Shown here: positions 16,882 to 64,000 of the stretch, one piece after another
Numbering within the stretch: the stretch's first letter is position 1
How the letters are laid out: each line of letters begins with the position of its first letter
From: an uncultured Candidatus Saccharibacteria bacterium
GTDB lineage: Bacteria; Patescibacteriota; Minisyncoccia; Phycocordibacterales; UBA918
NCBI GenBank assembly: GCA_964350985.1
Contig: CAYGLK010000001.1
Location: 391,698 to 455,697, forward strand
Direction of reading: 5' to 3'
DNA length: 64,000 bases
Notes under the pieces: generated by a model
What the model was told of the DNA's origin: nothing
Seen by the model: the letters and a program-made list of their open reading frames with translations, nothing else
The model's database searches: none
Position numbers and translations under genes: made by a program

Positions 16882-16933
16882 TTTCAACTAGCCATTTCTG
16901 GCTTATTCATATATCCACAACAAGGAGGGTTCC

Positions 16934-17455: not shown

Positions 17456-17514
17456 AACGCCGGACGACCAATCCGAGGAGATGAAGATACTGCTCATTCG
17501 TGCTCCACCTCACC

Positions 17515-47807: not shown

Positions 47808-48263
47808 TTATAGTATTTTAGTAAATTGAAATTCTGTCCCTATTTTTTCTTGCTTGAAGTTTAGTGACTCAGCTAATTTACGGCTTGGTAGATTACCTTC
47901 GTCAGCAGTATAGATAACCTGCTCGACACCTTCATTCTTAAGTCGGTCTATTAGTTCACTCAAGACCTGCCGACCATAACCCTGACCCTGCTTTGGAACA
48001 CAAAGCCACATACCAATCTCAGCTATTTTAGGTTCCGGATAACTAGGTGAAATCATACCAATGAAATCATCACCTTCAAAAATGACATACTCAAGCTTGG
48101 TACCAAGTGTCTGTTTTTCTATTGCATCAATGACCCAAGTCTCTACTTCGTCCCGATTTTTAAAATCATAAAAATATTCAGCTACGTTTCCAGAATTAGT
48201 TTCAAAAATTAAATCAATATGTTCTGTCGAGAGCGGTTTCCAAGTTAAGGTTCGATTTTTCAT
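47808..48263 (-). CDS. GNAT family N-acetyltransferase
   Basis: QGQGYGRQVLSELIDRL motif A. Confidence 0.75.
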   Translation of the reverse strand: MKNRTLTWKPLSTEHIDLIFETNSGNVAEYFYDFKNRDEVETWVIDAIEKQTLGTKLEYVIFEGDDFIGMISPSYPEPKIAEIGMWLCVPKQGQGYGRQVLSELIDRLKNEGVEQVIYTADEGNLPSRKLAESLNFKQEKIGTEFQFTKIL

Positions 48264-50294: not shown

Positions 50295-50570
50295 GAATTC
50301 ACAAACCTTCTCGTCTCTTGTCACACCTACTGCGGTGATGACGGTCTTGAGAGGTCAAATCTCCGTTTCTTTCACTCCGAAGAAGAGTACCGGAGCAAAT
50401 CACTTAGACTAGGCTGGGACAAGGACGGCTGGTGTACACCACCAGTTAGTCTACCTGCTTTAGTTGAAGAAAAGGCTTTAGCAGAGTTCAAAGGGGGTCA
50501 GGACCTCCCTTTGTACAACGTGTTCTTTCCAGACGATCTAGAGACGACGTTTCTGCGTCTTGTCGGCTAG
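50295..50570 (+). CDS. Small GC-rich hypothetical protein (opposite strand at distal end of cassette array)
   Basis: GGGGAGG 6 nt upstream of ATG; ~50% GC; followed by GC hairpin terminator at 50584-50611. Confidence 0.4.
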   Translation, partial: EFTNLLVSCHTYCGDDGLERSNLRFFHSEEEYRSKSLRLGWDKDGWCTPPVSLPALVEEKALAEFKGGQDLPLYNVFFPDDLETTFLRLVG

Positions 50571-50583
50571 AAAAAACTGTGTC

Positions 50584-50611
50584 AGGCGCTTCCGTTCACT
50601 CGGAGGCGCCT
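50584..50611. terminator. GC-rich hairpin terminator
   Basis: aggcgcttccgttcactcggaggcgcct followed by ATAATTTTA. Confidence 0.5.
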
Positions 50612-50656
50612 ATAATTTTATAAACATACGTCCATTTTCCTACTCCAACATTGTAA

Positions 50657-50683
50657 GCTGGCTGTATGGGACAATGTTAGAAC
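50657..50683 (-). repeat. Cassette-boundary element copy 1 (gctggctgtatgggacaatgttagaac), overlaps stop of 50683-51009
   Basis: Member of the ~30-bp family with consensus (gene-sense strand) AAAAAGTTCTAACRTCGTCCCATACAGCCAGC. Confidence 0.6.
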
Positions 50684-51009
50684 TATTCTCCATCAGGAAC
50701 CTCATTCAGAACAGCATAATCTACATGAGACACCTTAAGTATATCCTTGACCTCAGTAAATGATATTTCGCCGTATACACTACTCTTTCCCCATACATAG
50801 ATGTTTCTAGATTTACTAACCACCCTTATTCGACCTCCCCCCAACACATTCTCTACTACAATACCAGATTCCTCCATTTCTGTAGTTATATCTTTATGCC
50901 ACTCTACATTTGGATTACCCCACAAAATTAATTGTTCCAGACCGGAAACTTTTGCGACGATATATTTTTGAGTTACTTCTGGAAAAAGTTTTACTGCCTC
51001 AATATTCAT
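50683..51009 (-). CDS. Hypothetical protein (cassette)
   Basis: Intact 108-aa ORF; no domain recognised. Confidence 0.45.
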   Translation of the reverse strand: MNIEAVKLFPEVTQKYIVAKVSGLEQLILWGNPNVEWHKDITTEMEESGIVVENVLGGGRIRVVSKSRNIYVWGKSSVYGEISFTEVKDILKVSHVDYAVLNEVPDGE

Positions 51010-51042
51010 AAATTAATTATACTAAAGCAAGGAATAAGGCTT

Positions 51043-51837
51043 CTAGATCAATAAATTATTTATCTTTTTGAGCAATTCGGGGTTGCTGCACAAATAATCA
51101 CCCTCATACACACTGACATCGCTTCCTGCCAAATTATTCATCATGGCACCTGCCTCAGAAGCAATAATACTACCTCCCGCCACATCCCAAGGCTTTTGCT
51201 TTAGCCTAATCAAACCGTCAATCCTTCCACAGGCTAGATAACAAAATTCTGCTGCCATAGAACCTCTGCCAAAAACTGGGTCGATGTCTTCTTTGTTAGT
51301 GAATCCAAAATTCTTTAGATTTCCAATATTTTTTGAAAGTTTTTCGGTAACTCCTTCACTTTCTTTTTCTCTTCCAGGGTAAACTGAATAAGTAACAATA
51401 GCTTTATCTAAATCCGTTTGATCACCTACTTTTATTAGTTGGTCATTCATGAACGCCCCTCCACCCAAGGTGGCGTGAAATAATTCATCCCTTTTTGGCA
51501 AGAAAACCAATCCCATTATCAAAAGACCATTCTTCTCTAACCCTATAGAGATAGAAAAAGTGTCTCTACCAGCAACATAATTATTGGTTCCATCAATTGG
51601 GTCAATTATCCATTTATATTCTGAAGTACCAATTTCTTCACCGGATTCTTCACACAAAAAACCATCCTCAGGAAATTCTTTTTTCAGTATTTTGAGGATC
51701 AATGATTCTGAATCTTTATCCTGCTCTATTGCCAAAATACTTAAACTATCACTATCACGCGCACTATTTATATTCTTCATTAAAAACTCTCCTGCCTCTA
51801 AAGCAGCTTGTTTGGCAACGGATAAATATTTTTCCAT
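51043..51837 (-). CDS. Inositol monophosphatase family protein (SuhB/CysQ-like)
   Basis: WIIDPIDGTNNY and downstream GG..MN/D motifs of the IMPase fold. Confidence 0.8.
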   Translation of the reverse strand: MEKYLSVAKQAALEAGEFLMKNINSARDSDSLSILAIEQDKDSESLILKILKKEFPEDGFLCEESGEEIGTSEYKWIIDPIDGTNNYVAGRDTFSISIGLEKNGLLIMGLVFLPKRDELFHATLGGGAFMNDQLIKVGDQTDLDKAIVTYSVYPGREKESEGVTEKLSKNIGNLKNFGFTNKEDIDPVFGRGSMAAEFCYLACGRIDGLIRLKQKPWDVAGGSIIASEAGAMMNNLAGSDVSVYEGDYLCSNPELLKKINNLLI

Positions 51838-51927
51838 GTCTAATTACACTATCAGACTGGAAGTAATTTGCAATTTAAATTAAATTACTCAAATGTTTGA
51901 GGAGTGTTAAAATTGTTAACAACTCAA

Positions 51928-52209
51928 CTACATAGTAATAGTTGGATAGAAATGTTCTGGATTCCGGTTTTGTTCTTCAACCTCCAACAAAGAAAAGCGT
52001 TTCTTCCCTTCACTATTCATTCCTGTAAATCTTTCGATTGAAGTTGAATAAAGTTGTCCATGATCATATAAGGCTCGATAGATAACACGGAATTCATCCC
52101 CGTCATTGTCAGCAAATTTTGCTATATCAACTACTAAGTACTGATTGCCCCGATAGTGTTCGTAAACACGATTTCGCATTACTAAAGTTTCCAGTTTTTT
52201 GTATTCCAT
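51928..52209 (-). CDS. DUF1653-like small protein
   Basis: YEHYRGNQYLVVDIAKFADNDGDEFRVIYRALY pattern; leaderless TATAAT 7 nt before ATG. Confidence 0.55.
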   Translation of the reverse strand: MEYKKLETLVMRNRVYEHYRGNQYLVVDIAKFADNDGDEFRVIYRALYDHGQLYSTSIERFTGMNSEGKKRFSLLEVEEQNRNPEHFYPTITM

Positions 52210-52302
52210 ACTTAAAATTATACCAGCCTATACAGTCTGGAGTAGTGTTGTAACTTTTCTAAGTATACCAAAAAATCAGACTTCGTAAGAAAGTAAATAA
52301 AG

Positions 52303-53022
52303 CTAAATTGCTTTCACGGCCGAGACAATGACATCCATTATGTGACGAAAATGGAATTCGATATCTTCAAATCCAGATTTCTTTAAAGAGTCCCTCTGCT
52401 CTCTTTCAGTAAGTTTGAATTCGTCATCTTCGAGGTAATGATCCCTCCAATGACTTTCGAGTTCAGGGTATCCTTTCTCAGTAAATATCTTAAACGCGTC
52501 AAGCATATCTTGGAGATCTTTTTGATGTAAACTTGAATTATCTCGAGCAATCTTGTCTCCATTTATATAAACCCCTCCAGACAGCATAATATTGCCAATC
52601 CGATCGAAAAGACTTTTCCTATATCCCACAGGAAGATTGTGAATCGTAAAAGCCGAGACAAAGATATTAATGTTATAAATCTCATTCAAAGCATCCAATA
52701 AATCTTTTTCAATGAAAACAACCCTGTCTTCGTATTCCTTAAGATATTCCTTGGCCTGATTCATTAAAGCGGGTTCATTATCAATAGCCAAAACCCTGAC
52801 TCTCTTGTCACTGTCTAAAAGAATCTTTGTAGTTAAACCAGTTCCGCTTCCTCCTTCGTATACATCAATTTGAGTAGAATCATCTGCTTCATACTTGGAC
52901 TGAATATATTTTGCTAAGACATTACCTACCTCTTTCTGAAAAGAGTCATAGTGTGGAACAGCCATATTGAAGAGGTTGTATTCCTGACCTATTGAACCTG
53001 AGAATCTTTGATCGCTTTTCAT
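52303..53022 (-). CDS. Class I SAM-dependent methyltransferase
   Basis: VYEGGSGTGLTTKILL motif I. Confidence 0.6.
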   Translation of the reverse strand: MKSDQRFSGSIGQEYNLFNMAVPHYDSFQKEVGNVLAKYIQSKYEADDSTQIDVYEGGSGTGLTTKILLDSDKRVRVLAIDNEPALMNQAKEYLKEYEDRVVFIEKDLLDALNEIYNINIFVSAFTIHNLPVGYRKSLFDRIGNIMLSGGVYINGDKIARDNSSLHQKDLQDMLDAFKIFTEKGYPELESHWRDHYLEDDEFKLTEREQRDSLKKSGFEDIEFHFRHIMDVIVSAVKAI

Positions 53023-53191
53023 AAATAATATTTGAAGAATGTTAAAAATTATACGATTTATTTTAGATTTGTTTATTCAAGAGCATCTTAACACAATCAG
53101 CTTGTTAGTGAAAAAGTAAATATTAAAATACAAAAACAGCCCGCGAAACGAGTCCGTAGACTGTTCCTGCGAGCTATTGCTCAAATCCATC

Positions 53192-53884
53192 TCACCAACT
53201 CTTCGAGATTCGCATCCCGAATGTTGCATGTTGCCCAGTTTCGCCGGCATACCAGTCGACCAACGAGCCAACCGACACACGGTTGGGTAACTGATAGTCG
53301 ACAGCAACCCTGCCCCAAGCGCCGGTGTACCCATCATGAGTTTGATGACTGACGCCGATGCCAACGGTCGAAGACCAAGGGCTATCGAAATCACGTATCC
53401 AATCCGCACCCGTCCGGATTGACCAGGTCTCGATAAGACCTGTTATGCGGCCACCACCAGCCCAGATCCTGAGTGAATCATTCTCGCTCAGAGTGATAGT
53501 CCTTCCGATTTCGGCCTGTAGCCGAATGATGTCGGAATCGAGGTCAAAATCAGTCGCTGACGGAGTCGGCAGGTCGAAGTAGGCGAAGGAGATCTTCAGA
53601 TCGACTTCTCCGACCTTGGTTCCACAGCCGAGGGAGTAGTCGATTTCATTCCCTTCGTTGCCGAAGTCGATTGCCGACGATGCCCAGAAGTCTGCGAAAC
53701 AGTCTTCTCCGCTGAAAGTTATTCCACTTTGCACGACTGGGTTCTGATCTTGTACAAACCCAAACTCAACGAAAGAATAGTCCGACTTGATGGCGCTGTA
53801 AGCCGTCACTGTCTGACTCTGAGCCTTACCAGCCAAAAAAGAGGCGGTAAGGATGAAAATTACGAAGAACGAGAATCTGTTCAC
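53192..53884 (-). CDS. Outer-membrane beta-barrel-like secreted protein (GC-rich, GTG start)
   Basis: Signal peptide; alternating amphipathic beta-strand pattern; C-terminal aromatic (..SKSW); local GC ~55%; GCAGGAG RBS before GTG. Confidence 0.5.
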   Translation of the reverse strand: MNRFSFFVIFILTASFLAGKAQSQTVTAYSAIKSDYSFVEFGFVQDQNPVVQSGITFSGEDCFADFWASSAIDFGNEGNEIDYSLGCGTKVGEVDLKISFAYFDLPTPSATDFDLDSDIIRLQAEIGRTITLSENDSLRIWAGGGRITGLIETWSIRTGADWIRDFDSPWSSTVGIGVSHQTHDGYTGAWGRVAVDYQLPNRVSVGSLVDWYAGETGQHATFGMRISKSW

Positions 53885-54166
53885 GGTCTACTCCTGCGAT
53901 TAAGGTAAGAACTACTGATCAAACAACGTTTACTATAGAATAATAACCCGTTTTATTCAAATGTCAAGCTTCACTTTCATCTCTTACTGCAGCCTACAAA
54001 AAAACATGCTACATTAGCAATGCTGTGCTGAGGTATGTGTAGCATAGGTGGGAGGCTTTGAAGCAGTTTCGCCAGATTCTGTGGAGCCGACAGTGAAATA
54101 CCAGCCCGCCCTGGACAGCCGGAGCGTCTCTCGAGACGCTCCGTTTTATATTATAAATTGAACTTT

Positions 54167-54194
54167 CTGCATGGGACGATGTTAGAACTTTTTT
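54167..54194 (-). repeat. Cassette-boundary element copy 2 (ctgcatgggacgatgttagaactttttt)
   Basis: Same family as other copies. Confidence 0.6.
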
Positions 54195-54252
54195 ATAAAT
54201 AAAAAGGCTCCCGATCGCTCGGGAACCTCTTGGCACTCCACAGTGCCTGCTA

Positions 54253-54414
54253 TCCTTCGGACTCGTCCTCAACGAGCAAACCAGTTTCCTTATCCACGGA
54301 AAGGATTCTGCCTTCGTCATCAAGGACTGAGTGTGCACGGACACCGAGGCCGGTTTCGAAGGATCCGTCTTCAGCAAGCCCTGGAGGCTTTTGACCAATG
54401 GCATATTCGCTCAT
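54253..54414 (-). CDS. Small GC-rich hypothetical ORF (53 aa) followed by hairpin
   Basis: MSEYAIGQKPPGLAEDGSFETGLGVRAHSVLDDEGRILSVDKETGLLVEDESEG; the overlapping listed ORF 54009-54404 runs through the boundary repeat and is rejected. Confidence 0.3.
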
Positions 54415-54505
54415 TTGAGTTCTTCTTCAGTTTGCGGACGGGATTCATCCAAAAGTATTTTAACACACCTTTACAAAACCGAAAATATCAGTGCTGTAAC
54501 AGATT

Positions 54506-55018
54506 TTAGTTATTTTTAATATATTCTTCTACTGCCAGGACATCCTGCATTTGATACTGATGGTCTGCATCAGCTAGTTCTTTTTTGTAGGCCACTAAGT
54601 CGCGTGGATCCATTAATGAAACTTCTATACCGTTTATCACTACCAACTTATTGGGAAATTTACGAAAGTGATCTTTTGTTTGAAACCATTCTGTTTGTTC
54701 CTTATTGCTCATCCGCAAGGTGTCGATGTCAGTCATATCAATTTCTTGACCAAAGTAATTAAGTGAAAGTGTATTACAATCCCACTTTGCGTTTGAATAG
54801 TGTTTTGGACCAGCGGTTATATATTCCTTAGTTTCTGAGACAATAATTGGAAAGTGTTCACCGGAGATAGAAAAATCTAAATCATTTACAGGCCGACCAG
54901 ATCCATAGATATGAGCAGCAAATCCGCCGCCGATGCGGTACGGAATATTATTTCTATTTAAAATTTCCACAATCCACTTCAGGGCATTTAATGTTTTATC
55001 TTCTAGTTCTATTTTCAT
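54506..55018 (-). CDS. Pol-beta-fold nucleotidyltransferase, lincosamide/aminoglycoside nucleotidyltransferase (Lnu/ANT)-like
   Basis: IGGGFAAHIYGSGRPVNDLDFSI matches the G-x-G...D-x-D NTase motif in a ~170-aa protein like LinB/Lnu enzymes. Confidence 0.55.
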   Translation of the reverse strand: MKIELEDKTLNALKWIVEILNRNNIPYRIGGGFAAHIYGSGRPVNDLDFSISGEHFPIIVSETKEYITAGPKHYSNAKWDCNTLSLNYFGQEIDMTDIDTLRMSNKEQTEWFQTKDHFRKFPNKLVVINGIEVSLMDPRDLVAYKKELADADHQYQMQDVLAVEEYIKNN

Positions 55019-55035
55019 GTTTTGATTATATATTT

Positions 55036-55560
55036 CTAATTCGCAACCACATATTTAGCTGCATCTAGAAGTGTCGGAGAAACATAAGTTACTTTCTCAA
55101 CAATAACTGGAACTGTCGCAGTCTGTAAAAGAATTGTTTTTACTCCGGCGCTGATTCCCGACTTAATGTCTGACTCCCGATCTCCAACCATATATAAATT
55201 TTCTGGCTGTAGATTAAATTCTTTTATTGCTTCCAAAATCATTTTTGGACTTGGTTTTCGACAATCACACATGTCTCCTGGCCCATGTGGACACATGTAA
55301 GTTTTTAAAACCTTAACATCACTTGCCTTGAGTAATTCAAGGACCTTAGTATGAATTCTTTCAAAATCAGAAACAGTAATTCTGCCTTCTGCGATACCTG
55401 CTTGATTAGTTATTAAAATAACTGAAAAATCATGTTGCGCTAGATATGAAAGAGATTCAATGGTATCTGGAAATAATTCTATTTTGTTTTCCGTATCAAC
55501 CCTTTCATCAGCAGGTTCCCTGATAACGGTACCATCACGATCTAAAAAAATTACTTTCAT
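55036..55560 (-). CDS. HAD-IIIA phosphatase, D,D-heptose-1,7-bisphosphate phosphatase (GmhB)-like
   Basis: FLDRDGTV motif I, ITNQ motif II, Zn-site CPHGPGDMCDCRKP, GDRESD motif IV. Confidence 0.75.
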   Translation of the reverse strand: MKVIFLDRDGTVIREPADERVDTENKIELFPDTIESLSYLAQHDFSVILITNQAGIAEGRITVSDFERIHTKVLELLKASDVKVLKTYMCPHGPGDMCDCRKPSPKMILEAIKEFNLQPENLYMVGDRESDIKSGISAGVKTILLQTATVPVIVEKVTYVSPTLLDAAKYVVAN

Positions 55561-55591
55561 GTTCTTATTACATTAACTAATATCATAATCT

Positions 55592-56515
55592 TTATAATAA
55601 ACGAGTCACTCTTACCTTATTCTTTTCATATTTCTCTTTTTGGTTTGTAAATGAAGAAAATGCCAAACTACCCAGGCCGATACATAACTTATAACAAAGC
55701 ATACGCTCAGTATAATCCTTTATTTGTTTTCCATTTTTACTTGAATGCTCTAAATAGGCCGCCTGAAAATCAAATTCACTTGCGGACCAAAAATCCAGCC
55801 AAGCCAAATCAAATAAAAAATCTCCGTACATTGAATTTTCCCAATCAATTACCCCAGTAATTTTTTCACCATCCGACAAAGTGTTATTAAAACCATAATC
55901 TCCATGGATCAAGTAACGGTCTTCTGGGCAATATGAAACTAGTTCAGAGAATTTAGTATATGCAGTGTCCCAAAAATCTTTTTCAAGAAATGATGTCTCA
56001 AAAAGACCTGGTTTTTCTGCTGTACTAATAGTCCTCTTATTTACTGCCAATAACTCTTCCTTCCAACTCTTACTTTCACCACACTGTTCTAGATTCCATT
56101 CTCCATAACCAATTGTATGACTGATATCAATAACATGCACGGCATCGAGGACACTAAAAAGCTCAGGTAACAAACTTGTCATTTCATTGGTTGAAAATTC
56201 AGTCAAAATTTTACCTTTACTCTTTTCCGAAATACAAAATCGCAGCTCGTTATTTATTTTTCCAATGCTATATATTTTAGGTACAGGTAGGATATCTGAA
56301 CCAAAATTCTTAGCCGCATACTCATCTTTTCTAAAACCTAGAGTGTGATGCTTGTTAAGTCGAATAACATATTCGACTTTATTTACAGAAAAACTATATG
56401 CTTGCGACCCCTCACCACCTGAGATTACTTTAAAGTCTGTTACTTTATCCGAAAATGTTTTCTGCAGATATGCAACCACGTCAACTTGATCAACAATTGT
56501 TTTATAGTCGGACAT
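55592..56515 (-). CDS. Aminoglycoside phosphotransferase (APH) / protein-kinase-like family phosphotransferase
   Basis: IHGDYGFNN catalytic loop and VIDWENSMYGDFLFD Mg-binding segment (PF01636-like). Confidence 0.75.
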   Translation of the reverse strand: MSDYKTIVDQVDVVAYLQKTFSDKVTDFKVISGGEGSQAYSFSVNKVEYVIRLNKHHTLGFRKDEYAAKNFGSDILPVPKIYSIGKINNELRFCISEKSKGKILTEFSTNEMTSLLPELFSVLDAVHVIDISHTIGYGEWNLEQCGESKSWKEELLAVNKRTISTAEKPGLFETSFLEKDFWDTAYTKFSELVSYCPEDRYLIHGDYGFNNTLSDGEKITGVIDWENSMYGDFLFDLAWLDFWSASEFDFQAAYLEHSSKNGKQIKDYTERMLCYKLCIGLGSLAFSSFTNQKEKYEKNKVRVTRLL

Positions 56516-56584
56516 AAATTTATTTAAAAAATGACATAGATAATTATAAAAATTCCTTTCCCAGGGATAACAGTAGGTGAGTAA

Positions 56585-57112
56585 CTATGGTTTTTCTGTC
56601 ACGCTAAGGACTTTGGTTAATGTCTCCTCTAAAGTTCCATTCGCATCTATAACTACGGCCCCTAGTTGAGTTAAACTATCTTCAAATGATTTTTTAATTT
56701 CAATAATCCAATCTTGCATCTCTGGGTCTCTAGCAAAATCATGAGTCTCTCTTGTAGAGAGCCTGTGTCGAACATTATCAGGCGAGGCCTGAAGTAGAAT
56801 GACCTTATCGAACAATGGCACAATATCAGTAATGTTTGTTGCTGTTCCACAATAGAAACTAATTCTATCTGTCTCCTCTTCCATAAGTTGAGACAGCTTT
56901 TCTCTACTACAAGCAAAAACTAGATGCTTGATTTGATTAAGATCATTAGTATTCCATTCAGTAATAACTTCTCCTGTTCGCGAATCAGTAGTTTCAAACA
57001 TCCCAGGGATAATTTCAATATCATGTACAGTATAGCCACCCGCCCTTAAGCTTTTTCCAATAGTTGATTTTCCTGTCCCAGACATACCAGTAATTAGAAT
57101 AGTTTTCTTCAT
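56585..57112 (-). CDS. P-loop NTPase (AAA_33/shikimate-kinase-like small kinase)
   Basis: Walker A ITGMSGTGKSTIG at N-terminus; ~175 aa. Confidence 0.6.
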   Translation of the reverse strand: MKKTILITGMSGTGKSTIGKSLRAGGYTVHDIEIIPGMFETTDSRTGEVITEWNTNDLNQIKHLVFACSREKLSQLMEEETDRISFYCGTATNITDIVPLFDKVILLQASPDNVRHRLSTRETHDFARDPEMQDWIIEIKKSFEDSLTQLGAVVIDANGTLEETLTKVLSVTEKP

Positions 57113-57163
57113 ATGTTTAATAGTATCATTTTGTTTTAATATGACAGTTAATTATTTAAGTGA

Positions 57164-57197
57164 CATCTGCCTTTCTGAGACTAAGTTAAGATTTTTA
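57164..57197 (-). repeat. Cassette-boundary element copy (diverged: catctgcctttctgagactaagttaagattttta)
   Basis: ~70% match to family consensus. Confidence 0.45.
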
Positions 57198-57199
57198 TA

Positions 57200-57772
57200 C
57201 TATGACCTCAACTGAAACTTTCGATAAATATCCCAATATCCATCGTCACCTTCCAAAGCTAAACAAACATTATCAATACTTATACTCCTATCAAAAGTTG
57301 CATCGACCAAATGCTCTTTAATTTTTTCAAAGCCCTCCAGAGATAGATCTTTATAAGCAACTGTTATATGTGGATTATAAGGCCAAGGCTGATCATACCA
57401 ACTTGCATGTTCTTTTTTAAGATTATCTTCAAAAAAACTCGCTATCGTACCTAGACTTCCATAATCAAAAGGTTTTATATATACAACATACGGTGAAAAT
57501 CCTAATTTTGCTCCTGGCCAATTATCCATGTATGAATAATCATTAGTTTTAATTTCAGTAACAGGAACTGTATCTAAAAAATTCTGAATTTTTTCACAAA
57601 AAATATCCAGTTGTTCACCTGAAACCTTTAAACCCGAGCCCACAGTAATGTGGGGCGACCAAGCTTTAAGTGAACCTTTTGAGCCAGACAATAAAGATAA
57701 TTCATTTTGAATATCACGAATTTCTTTTGTCATTTCTTTATCAAAATATGAGACAATAGAAAATCTTTTCAT
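57200..57772 (-). CDS. 2H phosphoesterase superfamily protein (LigT / 2'-5' RNA ligase-like)
   Basis: Two H-x-T-x motifs (HITVG and HITVA) at typical spacing. Confidence 0.65.
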   Translation of the reverse strand: MKRFSIVSYFDKEMTKEIRDIQNELSLLSGSKGSLKAWSPHITVGSGLKVSGEQLDIFCEKIQNFLDTVPVTEIKTNDYSYMDNWPGAKLGFSPYVVYIKPFDYGSLGTIASFFEDNLKKEHASWYDQPWPYNPHITVAYKDLSLEGFEKIKEHLVDATFDRSISIDNVCLALEGDDGYWDIYRKFQLRS

Positions 57773-57831
57773 AAGTTAATTATATCAAACATAATCTCAA
57801 ACTTTTCAAGTTGATAAATATAGCTATATTA

Positions 57832-57861
57832 CTGTACTGGAGTGACGTTGGAACGTTTTTA
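57832..57861 (-). repeat. Cassette-boundary element copy (ctgtactggagtgacgttggaacgttttta)
   Basis: Same family. Confidence 0.55.
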
Positions 57862-57871
57862 GGTTAACAAA

Positions 57872-58308
57872 TTATCTAGTAGGGCGATAAATAACACCAT
57901 CTTTCATATTATTTAAAGTTCCTTCAGAGGGTTCAAAAATGTTTTCCGGGAGAGCATCTAGAGAGAACCATTCCCAACGATCGCATTTATGCGGCTCCAT
58001 ATTCTTCGGCTCACCCCCATTATAATGAGCTACCACAGAAACATTCAAGTAATGCTTATCGTCAGACTCTATGTAACGCATTTCATCAAAAACCGAGACT
58101 AGTTCAAAATCAGAAACATCTAAGTCAGTCTCTTCTTTTACTTCACGCTTCGCTGTCTCAAACACTGTTTCGCCAAATTCTAAGTGCCCCCTGGAAATGA
58201 CCACTCCCCTGTACCATGCGAAGAATTACGTAGACCTAAAAGCACTTCATTTTCGGAATTTAGAATAACGACACCAATCCCAACTCTAACATTTGGTTTT
58301 TCTTTCAT
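57872..58308 (-). pseudogene. Nudix hydrolase with -1 frameshift in a G5 tract (~58193-58197)
   Basis: Minus-strand ATG at 58308 encodes MKEKPNVRVGIGVVILNSENEVLLGLRNSSHGTGEWSFPGG then hits TAG; adding one G restores FPGGHLEFGETVFETAKREVKEETDL (Nudix box) continuing into ORF 57872-58204. Confidence 0.6.
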
Positions 58309-58387
58309 AACAACAGTATATCAAATTTGACCGTCCTCTATTGGAGTCTCGAACTTTAGTACGTTGCTAAATATAGCTTAAACTCGT

Positions 58388-58420
58388 TGCTGACTGTCTG
58401 GGACGACGTTAGAATTTTTT
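58388..58420 (-). repeat. Cassette-boundary element copy 3 (tgctgactgtctgggacgacgttagaatttttt)
   Basis: Same family; upstream flank gttgctaaatatagcttaaact also matches the array head at 62760-62780. Confidence 0.6.
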
Positions 58421-58426
58421 ACAACC

Positions 58427-59128
58427 TTAATCAACTTCTGGAACCCAAACCCCTTCTTTATACTTTTGAACAGGATGACCTCCACAAGGAATATCTCCCA
58501 TGAAGAAAACTACATCAATTACAGTCTCACCCGCATTATCATCCCTAGTGTAGTCGTACTTAACAATTTCACCATCTTCACCTTTAGTAGTGATATCCAA
58601 TCTCTTGAGACCATCTTCATCTTCCTCTCGTCGAACAATTTCATACTCGCCCCCACCAACAATTTCTTCAAGTACATTTAATACTTCTCTTTCATTGAGA
58701 ACTTTTTCTGCACTTTTTTCATTTGATTGTGTTTCCTCATTAGCCTGCATTAGTAGAGACACTTCTAATAGTAACTTCTCAGATTCTAACTGACTTCTTT
58801 CCACAGCAGCTTTGACTTCACTTGGTCGCGGATCTAAATCAATATCTAAATCAGCATACTGAGTAATATCTACCCAATTAAGACCTCTCCTTTTAACTTC
58901 TGCCCTAATTTCTTCAAAAGAAGCTGTTTCAGGCAACTCCAATAAATTAGCCATTTTCACAAAATGCCTTCTCTCATACTCTTCATCAATTTCTTCAAAA
59001 GAAGCCGTGTCTGGAAGGGCATATTTACGAGCTTTTAGTAGTCTCATTTCTTCACTCCATTCTATTTCATCTCTATGGTAAGGTAGTTCATTTCTCTTAA
59101 CACCTTCATTTGTCATTTTTTCAGTCAT
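58427..59128 (-). CDS. Hypothetical acidic protein (cassette)
   Basis: Intact 233-aa ORF; internal duplicated LPxTASFEEI segments; leaderless TATACT 6 nt before ATG. Confidence 0.45.
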   Translation of the reverse strand: MTEKMTNEGVKRNELPYHRDEIEWSEEMRLLKARKYALPDTASFEEIDEEYERRHFVKMANLLELPETASFEEIRAEVKRRGLNWVDITQYADLDIDLDPRPSEVKAAVERSQLESEKLLLEVSLLMQANEETQSNEKSAEKVLNEREVLNVLEEIVGGGEYEIVRREEDEDGLKRLDITTKGEDGEIVKYDYTRDDNAGETVIDVVFFMGDIPCGGHPVQKYKEGVWVPEVD

Positions 59129-59207
59129 GTTACAAGTATACCAAAAAATTCTATGGTCCCTATCAGGTACTAAATTTTAGTTTAAAAAATAAGGCTTAAA
59201 TAATTTA

Positions 59208-59237
59208 CTGGCCGTATGGGAATGTTAGAACTTTTTT
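59208..59237 (-). repeat. Cassette-boundary element copy 4 (ctggccgtatgggaatgttagaactttttt)
   Basis: Same family; forms 5' arm of ~100-bp imperfect inverted repeat ending tgatagggaccatagaat near 59150. Confidence 0.6.
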
Positions 59238-59276
59238 AAGTATATGAAAACGCCCTAACCAAGCAGCGCTTTCGGG

Positions 59277-59849
59277 TTAGGGCGTGGTCTCGATGAGACG
59301 AACTACATTGTTGAAGACTTCTTTTTTTGAACCGGCTGGCACTAGATTCAACTGTGGAATCTGCCCAGCAACCTGATCGAACACCATAGAGTCGGCCAAG
59401 CGCCTGACGATAGTTTCGTCTGTCTCTCCCCGGCTCCTGAGACGACGTGTCAGCTCATCAACTCCTGGAGCAACCAGATGAACTGGAATACATCTAACGC
59501 CCCTACCTTGGAACCAATCTGACACCAGCTGGTGGCACTCAGGAATAATGCAAACGAATGCCAGGCCACCTGTCTCAGCTGCCGCCTCAGCAAACTGTGA
59601 CTCAGTGCAACAGTATTGGTGGCCGTGATTAAGGACTTTCCAAATAAATTCCGTGATATCTCTCAGACCTTCCAATGTCTGAAAGTCATAATCGACGTCA
59701 GTTTCATAAGGACGGCGAGGACGAGTGGTAATGCTGCGCACCCTGCCGCCACCGTAGTGAGTCTCCAGAGCTCGTTCCAGGGTTGTTTTACCAACTCCTG
59801 AGGCCCCAGTGATTGTCACAACCTTCTTGATCATTGTCCAGAACTCCAA
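59277..59849 (-). CDS. Guanylate-kinase-like P-loop protein (GC-rich; probable start 59831)
   Basis: ITGASGVGKTTL Walker A then SITTRPRRPYETDVDYDF (GMP-binding TTRxxRxxE..G.DY.F); ~52% GC; GGAG RBS instead of leaderless -10; terminator hairpin cgccctaacc...ggttagggcg after stop. Confidence 0.65.
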   Translation of the reverse strand: MEFWTMIKKVVTITGASGVGKTTLERALETHYGGGRVRSITTRPRRPYETDVDYDFQTLEGLRDITEFIWKVLNHGHQYCCTESQFAEAAAETGGLAFVCIIPECHQLVSDWFQGRGVRCIPVHLVAPGVDELTRRLRSRGETDETIVRRLADSMVFDQVAGQIPQLNLVPAGSKKEVFNNVVRLIETTP

Positions 59850-59933
59850 TGTGTGCTTTCAGCATAAAATCACAGATTAAGTGATTCGTCAATATTAGAA
59901 AATGTGGCCAGCCGTCATTTTTTCAAAAGTTTT

Positions 59934-60524
59934 TTATAAAACAGCCCAAAATACTTTCCATTCAAAATCCCTCAATGTCACTAGCTCCAGTTCTAGGTTA
60001 GTGTTTTCTAAAAGTGAAAGGGCTTGTGGGTTTGGTGGTAAATCTTTGCTTTCAAAATGGCATACAATTCTCAACGGCAAAAGACCAAGTCCTTCACGAA
60101 CCTTACCTCCAGACTCGTCATCATGAAAAGGACTGTACTTACCAATCACATATGCTCCTGCAGAAGATCCGGCAATTGTCTTTCCCTTTAAGTTCTCCCT
60201 AAGGTTATTGTACTTATTTAATGCAGTGAGAAGTCTTGGTGTACTGCCTCCACGCAAGTAAAGTGCGTCTGACTTCTTGAGTTGTTCAATGAAATCATTT
60301 TCATTAGCTAACAAAAAATGCAACTGCTTTCCTTGTGCCTGCTCTTTATGCTTTTTAATATTTTCCTCAAACTTCCCGGCACTATCTTCATCTGTTGAAG
60401 CAAAATGACAAAGTAATATTGTCGCTTGATCTGGCAAATCACGCACAATCTCCTCATAAAAAGTCCGATTTTGTTCATTGTCAGTACCTGTATATCCACC
60501 ATGTAGAATAAACTTAGTTTTCAT
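59934..60524 (-). CDS. Peptidase S51 family (dipeptidase E / cyanophycinase-like)
   Basis: LYLRGGSTPRLL and IAGSSAGA (GxSAG nucleophile) motifs. Confidence 0.7.
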   Translation of the reverse strand: MKTKFILHGGYTGTDNEQNRTFYEEIVRDLPDQATILLCHFASTDEDSAGKFEENIKKHKEQAQGKQLHFLLANENDFIEQLKKSDALYLRGGSTPRLLTALNKYNNLRENLKGKTIAGSSAGAYVIGKYSPFHDDESGGKVREGLGLLPLRIVCHFESKDLPPNPQALSLLENTNLELELVTLRDFEWKVFWAVL

Positions 60525-60549
60525 ATATATATTATATCAAAATATCAAA

Positions 60550-60590
60550 CTGGCTGTTTTGGGACGATGTTAGAGCTTTTAAACTCTAAC
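60550..60590 (-). repeat. Cassette-boundary element copy 5 (ctggctgttttgggacgatgttagagcttttaaactctaac)
   Basis: Same family; contains a local palindrome GTTAGAGC-TTTAAAAG-CTCTAAC. Confidence 0.6.
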
Positions 60591-61133
60591 CTACTCTTGT
60601 ACTGGTCTCACCATCTCAATTACAGGCAACATCCCTTTATATAAAGCAATCTCTGTATCAGTCTTTTTGAAACCATATCTTTCATAAAAACTTATAGCTG
60701 AATCATTAAAACGAAATGCCTCCAAACGAGAATATTTTTCGTGATCTGACCATGACAAAAACTCTTCAATCAGTTTAGGTCCTATTCCCATACCCTTAGC
60801 TTCATTCAGTAGATATATAGCGTCAAGTTCGTTATATGTCTCATGTTTTATTCCATGCATAAAACCAACAATCTCTCCACTTCCATTTCTTACTACTCTA
60901 TAAATTACTTTTTCTGGATTTGCCAAAGCTTCAGCAATCACTTTTCTTCTATAGTCTGTATTAATTAACATCTCTCCACGCATTTCATCGACCATTTCAT
61001 CAGTAAGACCTGACTCTTCACCTACATATGATTCTTTCCAAGACTGAATATGCATCTTAGCTAGCGCTAATTCTTCACCAACTTTTGGTAATTCGATTTT
61101 GAATGACGGGCTATTCTCTATATTACTTTCCAT
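60591..61133 (-). CDS. GNAT family N-acetyltransferase
   Basis: GMGIGPKLIEEFL motif A; typical GNAT length. Confidence 0.75.
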   Translation of the reverse strand: MESNIENSPSFKIELPKVGEELALAKMHIQSWKESYVGEESGLTDEMVDEMRGEMLINTDYRRKVIAEALANPEKVIYRVVRNGSGEIVGFMHGIKHETYNELDAIYLLNEAKGMGIGPKLIEEFLSWSDHEKYSRLEAFRFNDSAISFYERYGFKKTDTEIALYKGMLPVIEMVRPVQE

Positions 61134-61164
61134 GTAGGAAGTATATCAGAGCAAAATATTACTT

Positions 61165-61584
61165 TTATAATGCTTCAAATGCCTTAGAAAGCATAGACCC
61201 CTGTCCTGACTGAAGTACATGGGCAGATTCTAGTGGAATCCAAAAACATTCAAATTTAATACCCCCTTCACTACTTGCCCAACGTTCTGGCAAATCTTCT
61301 GTTGGTTCAGCTAAGAAAAAGTGTCTTTCTTGTATTTCTTTTCTATATGGCGTCATATCATAATCTTGAACACCTAGCTGTTTAATTATTTTAAAACAAC
61401 TATAACCAGTCTCTTCTTGTAGTTCACGCATAGCTGCCACCTCAGGAGATTCGTCTTGTTCAATCGTTCCAGCCGGGACTTGAATACCTACTTCTTCATA
61501 AGAGAAATCAACATGGCGAAACACCAGTAATTTGTTATTACTAATTACATAAACAATTACTTTCTTTTTATGCGCTTTATCCAT
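61165..61584 (-). CDS. Nudix hydrolase
   Basis: Nudix box VPAGTIEQDESPEVAAMRELQEETGY. Confidence 0.8.
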   Translation of the reverse strand: MDKAHKKKVIVYVISNNKLLVFRHVDFSYEEVGIQVPAGTIEQDESPEVAAMRELQEETGYSCFKIIKQLGVQDYDMTPYRKEIQERHFFLAEPTEDLPERWASSEGGIKFECFWIPLESAHVLQSGQGSMLSKAFEAL

Positions 61585-61602
61585 TACCTTAATTATACCA
61601 AA

Positions 61603-61640
61603 CTGGTTTATGCCTATCTGAGACTATGTTTGAACTTTAA
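61603..61640 (-). repeat. Cassette-boundary element copy 6 (diverged; overlaps coding 3' end of 61614-62075)
   Basis: ctggtttatgcctatctgagactatgtttgaacttt; ~75% match to consensus and encodes C-terminal KFKHSLR. Confidence 0.5.
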
Positions 61641-62075
61641 TTTACCAATAGTAGATTTTGTAATTTCTGTAAGCGCTGCCTCAACATCCAGAAAATCCCC
61701 CACCTTTGTTTTTTTGCTTGGGTTACCTTCAAAATATCTTTTGTCGAAATCCAACAAATTATTTTTTAATTCTTCGCTGATTTCACATTCATCTCCTTTT
61801 ATTACAACTAGTATTTTGTGATCAGCTTGATCATCTTCAAAATATTCAACCATTCCGATTGGAACACACTCAACTACTGAACTATGTGTAAGTTCTTTGT
61901 CCGTTATTACATAACAATCTAATTCATCCCCATCTGCAGCCAGAGTGTCCAGAATGTAACCATAGGGGTACGGATAGGTAATATGAAAGTCTACCGTCTT
62001 TTCATAGGCACCTGTTTTTTTATTAAAAACATTCTTTTTTAATGTTTGACTAGTCTGCTCAATAAAAACTTTCAT
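61614..62075 (-). CDS. ppa: Inorganic pyrophosphatase (family I)
   Basis: YPYPYGYILDTLAADGDELDCYVI....VVECVPIGMVEYFEDDQADHKILVV matches the family I motifs (YPxNYGFIP.T...DGDPLDVLV....R.VG....D..G.D.K..AV). Confidence 0.75.
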   Translation of the reverse strand: MKVFIEQTSQTLKKNVFNKKTGAYEKTVDFHITYPYPYGYILDTLAADGDELDCYVITDKELTHSSVVECVPIGMVEYFEDDQADHKILVVIKGDECEISEELKNNLLDFDKRYFEGNPSKKTKVGDFLDVEAALTEITKSTIGKLKFKHSLR

Positions 62076-62152
62076 AATCTGAAGTATACCAAAGTTCTAT
62101 AGTCCCTAACGGATACTAAGTTTTAGATTGAAAAATAAGCCTCTAATATCGA

Positions 62153-62190
62153 GCTAGCTGCATGAGACGACGTTAGAACTTTTTTAATAA
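62153..62190 (-). repeat. Cassette-boundary element copy 7 (gctagctgcatgagacgacgttagaacttttttaataa)
   Basis: Same family; 5' arm of ~100-bp imperfect inverted repeat ending ccgttagggactatagaac at ~62100. Confidence 0.6.
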
Positions 62191-62191
62191 A

Positions 62192-62710
62192 TTAGTCAAT
62201 TCTGTATTCAGCATTTTCTGGTAATGAAATATCTTTAAACTCAAAAGTGACGCCAAGTCTCTTCATCTCTTCTACAGGATTATCAATTCTTTCAATTTCA
62301 ATTGGTTTAGTAGGTTCATTTGAAACCACTTCTAAATTACCTAATCCTTCTTTGTACACAAAAGTATTATCATCAAACTGATATAAATAGCCGCCTTCTC
62401 CATAAAGCACTTGCAGACTAGCTTCTAATGAATCAACCCCAATTATCAATACGGATTTATTATTGTCGTACAGACTGACACCCATACCATAGCTACCCTT
62501 AAAGCCCTCTTTTTTAATAGGCCTCGGATTATCTGTGTACGCTAGGGCAATCCACCTTTCTCGAGTAGCGTGAAATGATTCTTCATCAAAAACAACGACC
62601 GTAACACCCTCTTCATTTTCTTGAGTTCTGACTTGCCTTGATGGTCTAGCTTCTTCAGCATCAAATTTTTCACACGTACCGTGAAAAACTCTATTAGGTA
62701 TTTTTTCCAT
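62192..62710 (-). CDS. Hypothetical protein (first cassette after tRNA-Gln)
   Basis: Intact 172-aa ORF; leaderless TATAAT 6 nt before ATG. Confidence 0.45.
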   Translation of the reverse strand: MEKIPNRVFHGTCEKFDAEEARPSRQVRTQENEEGVTVVVFDEESFHATRERWIALAYTDNPRPIKKEGFKGSYGMGVSLYDNNKSVLIIGVDSLEASLQVLYGEGGYLYQFDDNTFVYKEGLGNLEVVSNEPTKPIEIERIDNPVEEMKRLGVTFEFKDISLPENAEYRID

Positions 62711-62785
62711 GATTAAATTATATCAAATATATTTCTATCAGAGACTCAAACTTTTATATGTTGCTAAATATAGCTAAACTGTGTA

Positions 62786-62804
62786 GCTGCCGATCAGGGA
62801 CTCG
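62786..62804 (-). repeat. 19-nt exact direct repeat of the tRNA-Gln 3' end (gctgccgatcagggactcg); proximal att-like site of the cassette array
   Basis: Identical to 62969-62987 inside/abutting the tRNA; the following sequence (ggtcaggagtcgtttatttaataa) is homologous to the tail of the downstream boundary elements (gacgttagaattttttacaa). Confidence 0.7.
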
Positions 62805-62927
62805 GTCAGGAGTCGTTTATTTAATAATCGTTCCACTCATTTAAATAATACGCTCACTACCCTGGCGGGTCAAACAGTCTCCAGACTGTTTGCTTCCGCC
62901 TTTCTCGTCCCCGATCTCGCAGGCTGA

Positions 62928-62967
62928 GACACTAAAATAGCTAGCAAAAGCTAGCTATTTTAGTGTC
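62928..62967. repeat. Perfect 18-bp-arm palindrome (gacactaaaatagctagc aaaa gctagctattttagtgtc) abutting the tRNA-Gln 3' end
   Basis: Read directly from sequence. Confidence 0.7.
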
Positions 62968-62969
62968 AG

Positions 62970-63040
62970 CTGCCGATCAGGGACTCGAACCCCAATAGCT
63001 GGTACCAGAAACCAGAGTCCTACCATTAGACGAATCGGCA
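62970..63040 (-). tRNA. tRNA-Gln (anticodon CTG)
   Basis: Minus strand folds as TGCCGAT / D-arm GTCT-AATGGTA-GGAC / anticodon arm CTGGT-TTCTGGT-ACCAG / variable CTAT / T-arm TGGGG-TTCGAGT-CCCTG / ATCGGCA + discriminator G; U1-A72 as in bacterial tRNA-Gln. Confidence 0.7.
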
Positions 63041-63418: not shown

Positions 63419-64000
63419 TTAATCTTTGACTATTTTCCATTCACCTACCCCAGTAGCGTCTTTTAGATATCTAAGGTGGGTGATCTTAGCGTTTTTCATG
63501 AAATAAATTTTAGCTAAGCATTTAAAAGCTGCAAAAATATTCATCGGTTTTTTAGACCGGAGGTGTTGCAAGAATATATTAATAAAAATGGCGTGTGACA
63601 CTATAACCACTCGAGCATCTTGATCGAAGGCTTCCAAGTGAGATCTTGCTTTGGTAACACGATCAACAAAATCTTGGTAACTCTCCCCGTTCTCAACTTT
63701 GTCACCTCTAAACCAACACCAAATAAACCAAAGGGCTTTAACGCCCATATATCTCTCAGCTACTAAAATACTGGGACGGTGCCACTCTTCAAAAATACTG
63801 TCAGTCACAGGTATAACGTCTACACAACACGACATTATGATCCTGGTTGATTCTACAGCTCGTAGCTGGGTACTACTGAACACGTGAGTTGGATCTAAAG
63901 CAGCTATCTTAGGAGCAACCTCTGCAATCTGAGCTTTACCAGTAGCATTGAGTGGTGTGTCATGGTGCTGGTGTCTTCGAGCTACATTTCCATCAGTCTG
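63419..64000 (-). CDS. Histidine phosphatase (phosphoglycerate mutase) superfamily protein; partial (N-terminus beyond window end)
   Basis: Extending the ORF upstream of the listed Met gives ...VARRHQHHDTPLNATGKAQIAEV (RHG-like catalytic motif) and later VVIVSHAIFI. Confidence 0.5.
   Translation of the reverse strand, partial: QTDGNVARRHQHHDTPLNATGKAQIAEVAPKIAALDPTHVFSSTQLRAVESTRIIMSCCVDVIPVTDSIFEEWHRPSILVAERYMGVKALWFIWCWFRGDKVENGESYQDFVDRVTKARSHLEAFDQDARVVIVSHAIFINIFLQHLRSKKPMNIFAAFKCLAKIYFMKNAKITHLRYLKDATGVGEWKIVKD

Follow-up and report, generated by a model that had tools for sequence, protein, structure and literature searches.

A tRNA-anchored array of small gene cassettes in a Patescibacteria chromosome and a possible integron-like exchange system

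Background

Is a run of small accessory genes in a reduced bacterial genome an integron loaded with resistance genes, or an array of another kind? The question arises from a 64,000-nt stretch of contig CAYGLK010000001.1 (positions 391,698 to 455,697; assembly GCA_964350985.1, an uncultured Candidatus Saccharibacteria bacterium), which we call the window and number from its first base. Between 50683 and 62710 it holds 18 genes, all on the minus strand, which an initial annotation had likened to the resistance and detoxification cargo of integron cassette arrays. We find that, in a chromosome of the Paceibacteria/Nomurabacteria type, the interval 50657-63040 probably consists of some 11-12 short gene cassettes lined up behind a tRNA-Gln gene that serves as their anchor, and that copies of a 33-nt site, here called M, follow its genes. 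A more far-reaching explanation, to which we give a probability of roughly 0.5, is that bacteria of the candidate phyla radiation (CPR, or Patescibacteria) have a lineage-wide integron-like system, in which M-ended cassettes from a shared pool of enzymes are moved at tRNA-Gln and tRNA-Val genes by a factor acting in trans, possibly a serine recombinase.

CPR genomes are tiny, and their gene gain and loss are poorly understood. These bacteria are missing much of de novo biosynthesis and scavenge from their hosts. Full-text searches of the literature turned up no account of an integron, or of a cassette array linked to a tRNA, in CPR. The window itself reads as a typical CPR chromosome. Its GC content is ~0.38, it encodes GroEL, BipA, HtpX, LemA, RNase J, and a sigma factor (identified by eye from the translations), and the nearest named relatives of its proteins come from Nomurabacteria, Paceibacterota, and Parcubacteria.

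Results

A 33-nt site recurs behind the array genes

The motif AAAGTTCTAACRTCGTCCCA is found six times between 50667 and 62182, always on the coding strand, where no occurrence would be expected by chance, and the remaining 50 kb of the window lack it. A profile derived from numerous copies and visual inspection extend it to the 33-nt site M (consensus AAAAAGTTCTAACATCGTCCCAGACAGCCAGCA), with about 12 copies in the window between 50657 and 62185, six of them strict and about six degenerate. M has the form AAAAAGTTCTAAC[A/G]TC followed by GTCCCnnAnnGCCAGCA. The copies come after stop codons or terminators, and the second half of the site (GTCCC...GCCAGC) resembles the T-stem and the acceptor 3' strand of tRNA-Gln.

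Read along the minus strand, the better copies lie at 62153-62185 (27/33 to the consensus, with an inverted arm following at 62091-62106), 60549-60581 (28/33), 59206-59236 (the M of a guanylate-kinase-like cassette described below), 58388-58420 (30/33), 54162-54193 (27/33, with a terminator hairpin before it), and 50657-50686 (27/33), the last copy, which overlaps a stop codon and ends the array. Degenerate copies are found at 61608-61640 (24/33, overlapping the 3' end of a pyrophosphatase gene), 57828-57860 (23/33), 57166-57196 (24/33), and 52228-52259 (21/33), and a decayed one at 59904-59933 (17/33) follows a gene for an S51 peptidase. A typical cassette would comprise a short promoter, one to four genes, often a terminator, and a terminal M; the units measure 0.55-3 kb and have clean boundaries.

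Several cassettes open, just before the promoter, with a conserved leader of ~70 nt (AGCTATATTTAGCAAC ... GGTTCGAGTCCCAGAT) that looks like part of a tRNA anticodon arm and T-arm. Examples are found at 58340-58387 and 62740-62786 in the window and at four related loci (L053, L027, L013, L084); the M at 58388-58420 is followed by such a pseudo-tRNA-like leader, AGCTATATTTAGCAAC...GTTCGAGACTCC.

Several known kinds of site were considered for M and set aside. As a dif/Xer site it would be out of place, since the GC skew of the window is uniformly negative without a terminus switch and M has no dyad. Its confinement to the array within the window speaks against a DNA-uptake sequence. For a phage attP, 2.9 million IMG/VR viral contigs yielded one chance match, inside a primase gene. 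Rfam searches at gathering and E-value thresholds recovered only tRNAs, with no known RNA family at the M junctions. We also discarded the idea that T-arm-like second boxes belong to the site, as inverted and forward boxes accompany 19 and 11 of 211 copies, respectively, versus 3 and 4 in controls, and thus only a minority.

The variable region begins at the 3' end of a tRNA-Gln gene

The anchor of the array is tRNA-Gln(CTG) at 62969-63040 on the minus strand, detected by both ARAGORN and Rfam, with the 3' end ...GGTTCGAGTCCCTGATCGGCAGC. Directly behind it lies a gene-less segment (62805-62968, minus strand) containing an 18-nt palindrome, an inverted arm resembling a tRNA 3' end (GATCGGGGACGAGAA), and a stem-loop; analogous segments are present at two related loci (L063 and L060). 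The palindrome, at 62928-62967 and immediately after the tRNA, has two perfectly matching 18-nt arms around a 4-nt loop. There follows, 165 nt downstream of the tRNA, a direct repeat, 19 nt long and exact, of the 3' end of tRNA-Gln (62786-62804, minus strand; CGAGTCCCTGATCGGCAGC), a duplication of the att type. L063 shows a like arrangement with a repeat of ~20 nt.

Gene order is conserved on one side of this tRNA and variable on the other. The gene upstream of it, outside the array, encodes a His_Phos_1 core protein (63419-63883, minus strand; Pfam 4.4e-12), homologues of which (38-47% identity) are syntenic upstream of tRNA-Gln at five loci (L063, L027, L056, L060, L058), with dnaX and an S11 carboxypeptidase further upstream in up to five of the syntenic relatives. 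Synteny with these loci ends at the tRNA. Downstream of it, nothing is common to them except two shuffled genes. At L058, the first gene after tRNA-Gln is a homologue (~60% identity) of the array's Nudix gene at 61165-61584, and at another locus (L001) an 80%-identical copy of its nucleotidyltransferase gene directly follows tRNA-Gln. In relatives, cassettes directly abut the tRNA 3' end, which would be the entry site for cassettes. At the other end, the distal flank (50512-50656, minus strand) begins exactly after ...CAGCCAGC, both here and at the related locus L084, where it stands behind a different cassette.

The locus thus shares features with tRNA-associated genomic islands: a specific, full-length tRNA, variable content beside a conserved flank, and partial tRNA repeats. 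An in-element site-specific integrase, a further feature of such islands, was not found in the window.

Cassettes have been shuffled at M

A case of exchange comes from L084, a 3.9-kb locus containing four segments of the window in a different order: the end of a Janus/Ocnus-family (Ocnus) gene with its M (50775-50657), the guanylate-kinase-like cassette (59895-59205), an M with a Nudix cassette (58420-57847), and an M with the distal flank (50695-50512). The shared units are 82-91% identical to the window. In L084, the kinase and Nudix cassettes stand between the Ocnus M and the distal flank, together with genes that the window array lacks (a NUDIX gene, a reverse-strand gene of 251 aa, and PIG-L). 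The order of the segments and their M-bounded breakpoints show that cassettes have been gained, lost, and re-ordered at M.

The guanylate-kinase-like cassette (59205-59895, minus strand) allows the boundaries to be placed. It consists of a promoter (ATATTGACG...), the gene (59277-59849), a terminator, and M, and it stands out with a GC content of 0.52 versus ~0.36. A 691-nt block that opens with the promoter ATATTGAC and includes M up to its final base is 88.7% identical between the window and L084; on neither side are the flanks related. The gene is rare, with 3 homologues among 5.8e9 proteins; at one further locus (L085) it begins right after the M of another cassette. Between the Nudix genes of L034 and L076, homology is likewise lost right after M. 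These alignments place the breakpoints within M or at its 3' edge, the position that corresponds, in a tRNA gene, to the 3' end.

We considered whether the genes could instead be an ordinary, vertically inherited housekeeping cluster in which M is a shared terminator or regulatory motif. M does often stand after or before terminator-like hairpins, and the nucleotidyltransferase of the array is highly conserved in the lineage. This explanation is nonetheless barely credible, given that synteny breaks exactly at the tRNA, the gene order is shuffled in L084, GC patches of 0.52 interrupt the array, one of them over a rare gene, and M is confined to the array.

A more serious rival is recombination of the RecA type, acting after DNA uptake or within the chromosome, between copies of M and the tRNA gene end that resembles it, so that M would be a homology anchor rather than a target site. 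It is a live rival because two junctions, those of the guanylate-kinase-like cassette and of the last M, give different apparent crossover positions. M on both sides of the inserted block in L084 also has the look of repeat-mediated gain and loss, and most arrays have no recombinase linked to them. A 33-nt repeat is, however, a poor substrate for RecA, and exact 19-21-mers persist across CPR classes amid differing surroundings, which is hard to account for without a protein that reads the sequence. The mimicry of tRNA 3' ends, with tail classes matching tRNA-Gln and tRNA-Val, is equally hard to explain by homology alone, and serine recombinases occur at the same tRNAs. On balance, we regard homologous recombination as unlikely.

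M is distributed across CPR and follows two tRNAs

In species-representative genomes (596 Gb), a 19-mer of M is found at 74 loci, 58 of which carry CPR lineage names. The chance expectation for the 19-mer, from the information content of the pattern, is ~35 over the 596 Gb and, by a rough estimate, well under one in the CPR share. A 21-mer adds at least 120 further loci in metagenomes. Altogether, we collected 237 copies of M across 199 loci.

For 66 copies, a tRNA on the same strand can be seen upstream; it is tRNA-Gln in 37 and tRNA-Val(TAC) in 18, together 83%. The tail of M tracks the type of tRNA (Gln or Val), and behind tRNA-Val(TAC) it reads CCCACATGGTGCAC, which is tRNA-Val-like. A third tail class, CCCACCCGGGGAGC, was seen at three loci from metagenome-assembled genomes (L043, L046, and L077), one of them a 3.78-Mb chromosome, and M may therefore reach beyond CPR or to another tRNA.

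Serine recombinases are the best lead to a possible trans-acting factor

A phmmer search of all window open reading frames (ORFs) of at least 60 aa with IntI1, XerC, and lambda Int returned nothing at E<1; as a positive control, the same queries detected a tyrosine recombinase (Xer-like) at locus L171. Across the 199 related loci, no IntI was found, and there was one Xer-like gene only. The array starts ~960 nt from the end of the window, and an integrase gene beyond position 64000 would have escaped this search; on that side, the five syntenic relatives hold His_Phos_1 and dnaX.

Large serine recombinases are encoded at 11 of the 199 M-bearing loci; the window has none. At four of the 199, the recombinase gene directly adjoins the 3' side of the anchoring tRNA and runs toward it, at tRNA-Val in L045 and L130 and at tRNA-Gln in L141 and L035, with M further downstream on the tRNA strand. 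The recombinase ORFs span 5955-7766 in L045, 532-2172 in L130, 5159-6712 in L141, 2547-4061 in L035, 264-1817 in L205, 7530-8000 in L062, and 6645-8000 in L054, all given from stop to stop, so that the true gene ends may be shorter. The tRNAs toward which they converge, with apparent overlap, are tRNA-Val(TAC), tRNA-Gln, tRNA-Arg(TCT), and tRNA-Ala. This arrangement indicates a putative family of tRNA-targeting serine integrases in CPR genomes. If cassette exchange is catalyzed in trans by a recombinase encoded elsewhere, these large serine recombinases are the best lead; the chances that a dedicated trans-acting recombinase is involved seem to us about evenly balanced.

The same observations lend themselves to a history without mobile cassettes, in which successive integrative elements, each at first with a serine or tyrosine integrase of its own, entered at the 3' end of tRNA-Gln and decayed, leaving M as attR-type scars and the cassettes as immobile remnants. 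Such a history would account for the exact 19-nt repeat of the tRNA end, for the build of M from a conserved non-tRNA arm and a tRNA-like tail whose class follows the tRNA, and for large-serine-recombinase elements inserted at the same tRNAs. It would also fit the tRNA-seeded island growth of tycheposons (bioRxiv 10.1101/2020.12.28.424599). Yet the units are very small and cleanly bounded, their re-ordering in L084 at 82-91% identity implies that units without an integrase moved recently, hundreds of unrelated cargo genes share one and the same left arm of M, and the viral contigs contain no M apart from the one chance match. We hold this history to be doubtful, although it deserves to be weighed seriously. 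Its simplest form, an attR model in which crossover always takes place where the left arm of M meets its tail, was rejected on the ground that the guanylate-kinase-like cassette travels with the tail.

The array is integron-like but no integron

Integron recombination sites (attC) carry a conserved R'' box, RYYYAAC, and a complementary R' box, GTTRRRY. M begins with TTCTAAC, which fits the R'' consensus at 6/7 positions, and co-oriented cassettes exchanged at M are a feature of the integron type. These two properties, along with the repeated site 3' of the genes and the presence of a kinase resembling APH(4), are what supports an integron, or a cluster of attC sites lacking integron integrases (CALIN), with resistance and detoxification cargo, as the initial annotation had seen it. 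The counterpart box, GTTAGAR, is found 40-160 nt downstream in only 1 of 214 M copies, the same as in the upstream control. Three window junctions folded on both strands gave z-scores of -0.55 to +0.52 relative to shuffled sequences, with no stable attC-type hairpin. Among 86 M copies, 36% had z<-2, and the best folders hold terminator-like hairpins just after M.

The genes also appear to carry their own promoters. Ten of the 18 array genes have an extended -10-like box (TGnTAnAnT) whose end lies 6-7 nt ahead of the ATG; this implies leaderless mRNAs as well as a promoter for each of these genes. A broader criterion (a -10 box ending 3-12 nt before the start) is satisfied by 9 of 42 other minus-strand genes, and Shine-Dalgarno-like motifs are rare (1 of 18 array genes and 3 of 42 other minus-strand genes), which suggests that leaderless mRNAs may be widespread in this genome. 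A generic sigma-70 scan showed no enrichment, with 35 sites against 35.4 expected; the informative signal is the ATG-adjacent extended -10 box only.

Thus, the cassette-like array of the initial annotation stands and the integron does not. With no intI gene detected by searches whose control was positive elsewhere, the R' box lacking, junction folding near z = 0, promoters in the cassettes, anchoring at a tRNA, and no resistance-family affinity in the nucleotidyltransferase or the GNAT protein, an integron or CALIN has been largely refuted and is now very improbable. We also discarded the idea of a defense island, as PADLOC gave weak domain-level matches only and no defense system.

One gene has a resistance-family affinity

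A specific affinity to a resistance family is apparent, by profile and alignment, in a single array gene, at 55592-56515 (minus strand). Its product matches PF01636 at 6e-19 and the APH(4)-Ia model at 1.9e-38, and its closest characterized relative is the hygromycin-B 4-O-kinase APH(4)-Ia, at 34% identity (PDB 3W0M, E 6.6e-39 over residues 16-284). The HxDxxxxN motif, HGDYGFNN at residues 204-211, aligns with HADFGSNN of 3W0M, and IDWENSMYGD at residues 223-232 aligns with IDWSEAMFGD. The phosphotransferase call of the initial annotation is therefore borne out with a specific APH(4) affinity: the protein does not fall among homoserine or choline kinases, APH(4)-Ia being its best match with the motifs aligned. 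Its score of 132.5 bits, against a cut-off of 725 for NF000107, is below the threshold of the curated APH(4) family. Its clade comprises ~110 proteins (40-61% identity), which come almost exclusively from Patescibacteria and stand in varied gene contexts. The likeness to APH(4)-Ia (PDB 3W0M, 3TYK) is accordingly one of aligned catalytic motifs, and the array protein sits in a separate, mostly CPR clade.

The gene at 54506-55018 (minus strand) had been called Lnu/ANT-like, and this did not hold. Its product has no significant profile or PDB sequence match and no NCBIfam Lnu or ANT match; below threshold, DUF2204 (E 0.042) and the Pfam family Aminoglyc_resit, ANT(2'') (E 0.065, 13.8 bits against a cut-off of 21), come nearest. 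A predicted model with a predicted local distance difference test (pLDDT) score of 95 gave TM1012 (PDB 2FCL) as the best Foldseek match, with TM-scores of 0.79/0.85, and LnuA, ANT(2''), and MenT1 at 0.55-0.65 (LnuA 4FO1, E 1e-5, TM 0.55; ANT(2'') 5CFU, TM 0.60). By its predicted fold, the protein is a minimal nucleotidyltransferase of the TM1012 type, with GGG at residues 30-32 and D46/D48 conserved. It shares with TM1012, LnuA, ANT(2'')-Ia, and MenT1 the minimal pol-beta-type fold and the GGG...DxD motif, and differs from them in sequence, at 12-15% identity. Its 270 homologues are 60-80% identical, and every one with a taxon name is from Patescibacteria. Such conservation across Paceibacteria suggests a housekeeping gene of the lineage rather than a mobile resistance gene.

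The acetyltransferase, likewise listed among resistance-like families, matches RimI best and lies far under every cut-off (35 bits against 86 for RimI, ~22 against 360-380 for Sat3/Sat4, and 18.5 against 140 for AAC(6') group E).

The APH(4)-like gene is part of a four-gene cassette (kinase, APH, HAD, nucleotidyltransferase) that is closed by the M at 54162-54193. A functional coupling of the four was considered and dropped, because the members are separate in relatives and the only recurring pair is P-loop kinase plus APH. In the window and at L081/L082 alike, the APH(4)-like gene is directly preceded by a small P-loop kinase gene, of the AAA_18 type in the former and the AAA_33 type in the latter; no homology is detectable between the window kinase and those of L081/L082. 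In practice, a resistance assay is merited by one gene only, the APH(4)-like kinase, and counting the array as an integron resistome would be a mistake.

The cargo is a set of phosphate and nucleotide enzymes

We checked the remaining domain calls with Pfam, NCBIfam, and PDB, and most hold at the superfamily level. All genes named here are on the minus strand. Downstream of the four-gene cassette, toward the distal flank, lie a gene for a secreted protein (53192-53884; GC 0.52, a signal-peptide-like N-terminus, C-terminus ...RISKSW), a S-adenosylmethionine (SAM) methyltransferase that is distantly CmoA-like by Pfam/NCBIfam (52303-53022), a DUF1653 protein (51928-52209; profile match), an inositol-monophosphatase family phosphatase (51043-51837; PF00459, 9e-51), and a protein of the Janus/Ocnus family, the PHPT1-type phosphohistidine phosphatases (50683-51009; PF05005, 5.6e-14). 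The Janus/Ocnus family is mainly eukaryotic; here it occurs in a CPR bacterium, with an orthologue at the start of L084. The four-gene cassette opens with a P-loop kinase of the nucleoside/nucleotide type (56585-57112; AAA_18, Thymidylate_kin, dNK) and includes a HAD-IIIA phosphatase of the GmhB or histidinol-phosphatase type (55036-55560; TIGR01656, 131 bits against a cut-off of 84). Between this cassette and the tRNA are a 2H (LigT-like) phosphoesterase (57200-57772; PF13563, 1.1e-8), a Nudix pseudogene with one frameshift (57872-58308), whose intact 145-aa orthologue in L084 is 94% identical, an acidic protein without a family match and of unknown function (58427-59128), the guanylate-kinase-like P-loop kinase (59277-59849; TIGR03263, 6e-13, below the cut-off), the S51 peptidase (59934-60524; PF03575, 3.6e-14), a generic GNAT acetyltransferase (60591-61133; PF13508, PF00583; best NCBIfam match RimI), the Nudix hydrolase (61165-61584; PF00293, 8.6e-18), a family I inorganic pyrophosphatase (61614-62075; PF00719, 1.1e-19), and, in the first cassette, a gene of unknown function with a weak DUF6886 match (62192-62710).

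Eleven or twelve of the 18 genes belong to phosphate ester, phosphate anhydride, or nucleotide chemistry, with three kinases and one nucleotidyltransferase, plus a GNAT protein, a methyltransferase, and a peptidase, beside phosphatases, Nudix proteins, a pyrophosphatase, and a 2H phosphoesterase. The earlier statement that enzymes of small-molecule and nucleotide phospho-transfer and hydrolysis dominate the cargo agrees with the profile matches, as do its calls for the APH, the GmhB-like HAD, the inositol monophosphatase, the 2H phosphoesterase, the S51 peptidase, the pyrophosphatase, DUF1653, and two P-loop kinases, one of them (weakly) guanylate-kinase-like. Some of its counts need correction. 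The frameshift in one Nudix gene is real, but 50683-62710 holds only two Nudix genes, not three (further ones, identified by eye from translations, are outside the array at 14088-14564 and 15929-16411); of two GNATs, the second is outside the array at 47808-48263; and a single SAM methyltransferase, not two, is in range. Missing from it were the Janus/Ocnus protein, two unknown proteins, and the GC-rich secreted protein.

Nor is this cargo unexpected for the lineage, as had been supposed in view of the reduced genome, since like genes precede M in dozens of CPR genomes besides this one. A census of 48 genes preceding M elsewhere counted NUDIX seven times, methyltransferases twice, and AAA_33 kinases twice, with single cases of His_Phos_1, dCTP deaminase, cytidine deaminase, HD, GNAT, glyoxalase, SDR, and MOSC. 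For the three proteins searched (the nucleotidyltransferase, the APH, and the guanylate-kinase-like kinase), the closest homologues are CPR proteins. The array probably draws on a flexible stock of accessory enzymes that are at home in CPR; judged by their superfamilies, these enzymes would help a scavenging episymbiont with salvage, with the sanitation of its pools, and with the modification of metabolites.

The composition of the array is uneven. The secreted-protein gene has no Pfam match, and a plasmid comparison also gave no match for it; a GC-rich non-coding stretch of 620 nt with an M site (53885-54505) adjoins it. The composition of this gene and the neighboring stretch looks foreign, and the GC patches of 0.52 against ~0.36 at the guanylate-kinase-like and secreted-protein genes point to mixed origins.

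Elsewhere in the window, a GC-rich patch (16547-17500; 0.465 against ~0.38) lies directly 3' of tRNA-Ser(GGA). Two antisense ORFs in it overlap completely, one on the plus strand (16934-17455; no Pfam match) and one on the minus strand (16949-17497), and the patch may be another tRNA-linked insertion.

Discussion

We have described an array in which small units move as blocks bounded by M, next to a tRNA gene whose 3' end the site imitates. A lineage-wide exchange of M-ended cassettes at tRNA-Gln and tRNA-Val would bring these observations together. Several findings weigh against our explanation of the array. M tails never exactly match the resident tRNA, agreeing at ~13 of 17 positions. Half of the window copies are degenerate, and several adjoining genes have no M between them. 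No recombinase is found in the window or adjoining most arrays, and neither circular intermediates nor empty sites were observed. The guanylate-kinase-like cassette carries a whole M including its tail, and the last M of the window is like the Ocnus copy of L084 in its left half and like the distal copy of L084 in its tail; variable crossover points of this kind would fit homologous recombination. Homologues of the APH and the nucleotidyltransferase are also found outside M contexts, and the roles proposed for the cargo follow from superfamily membership alone.

If cassette exchange in trans is nevertheless the right explanation, episymbionts with reduced genomes would have common access to a pool of salvage and housekeeping enzymes that can be exchanged. 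M provides a conserved site that can be searched for, the 3' ends of tRNA-Gln and tRNA-Val provide a defined entry point, and L084 provides a case of shuffling between two related genomes; together, these make gene flux testable.

Comparison with known systems

Among tRNA-linked islands, the closest parallel is provided by the tycheposons of Prochlorococcus, which are defined by an in-element site-specific integrase together with replication or hallmark genes (bioRxiv 10.1101/2020.12.28.424599). The likenesses lie in the streamlined genome, growth from the 3' side of a tRNA, partial tRNA repeats, metabolic cargo, and variable content by a conserved flank. The M array differs in having units of 0.55-3 kb without an integrase and one terminal site across many CPR lineages.

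The pdif modules of Acinetobacter plasmids and the integrative mobile elements exploiting Xer recombination (IMEX) are small and integrase-less, carry short conserved sites, and depend on a recombinase encoded elsewhere; pdif sites are 28-bp XerC/XerD dyads in alternating orientation. The M array is like them in its integrase-less modules at short sites, whereas M has no dyad, keeps a single orientation, and is linked to tRNAs.

With integrons and CALIN, finally, the array has in common co-oriented and mostly single-gene units, a terminal site, breakpoints at that site, a fixed entry end, and accessory enzymes as cargo. It differs from them in that M is a linear 33-mer rather than a variable imperfect palindrome, a tRNA 3' end takes the place of attI, cassettes have their own promoters, and no IntI was found. 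The array may thus work like an integron without being one, with the 3' end of a tRNA gene serving as its point of entry.

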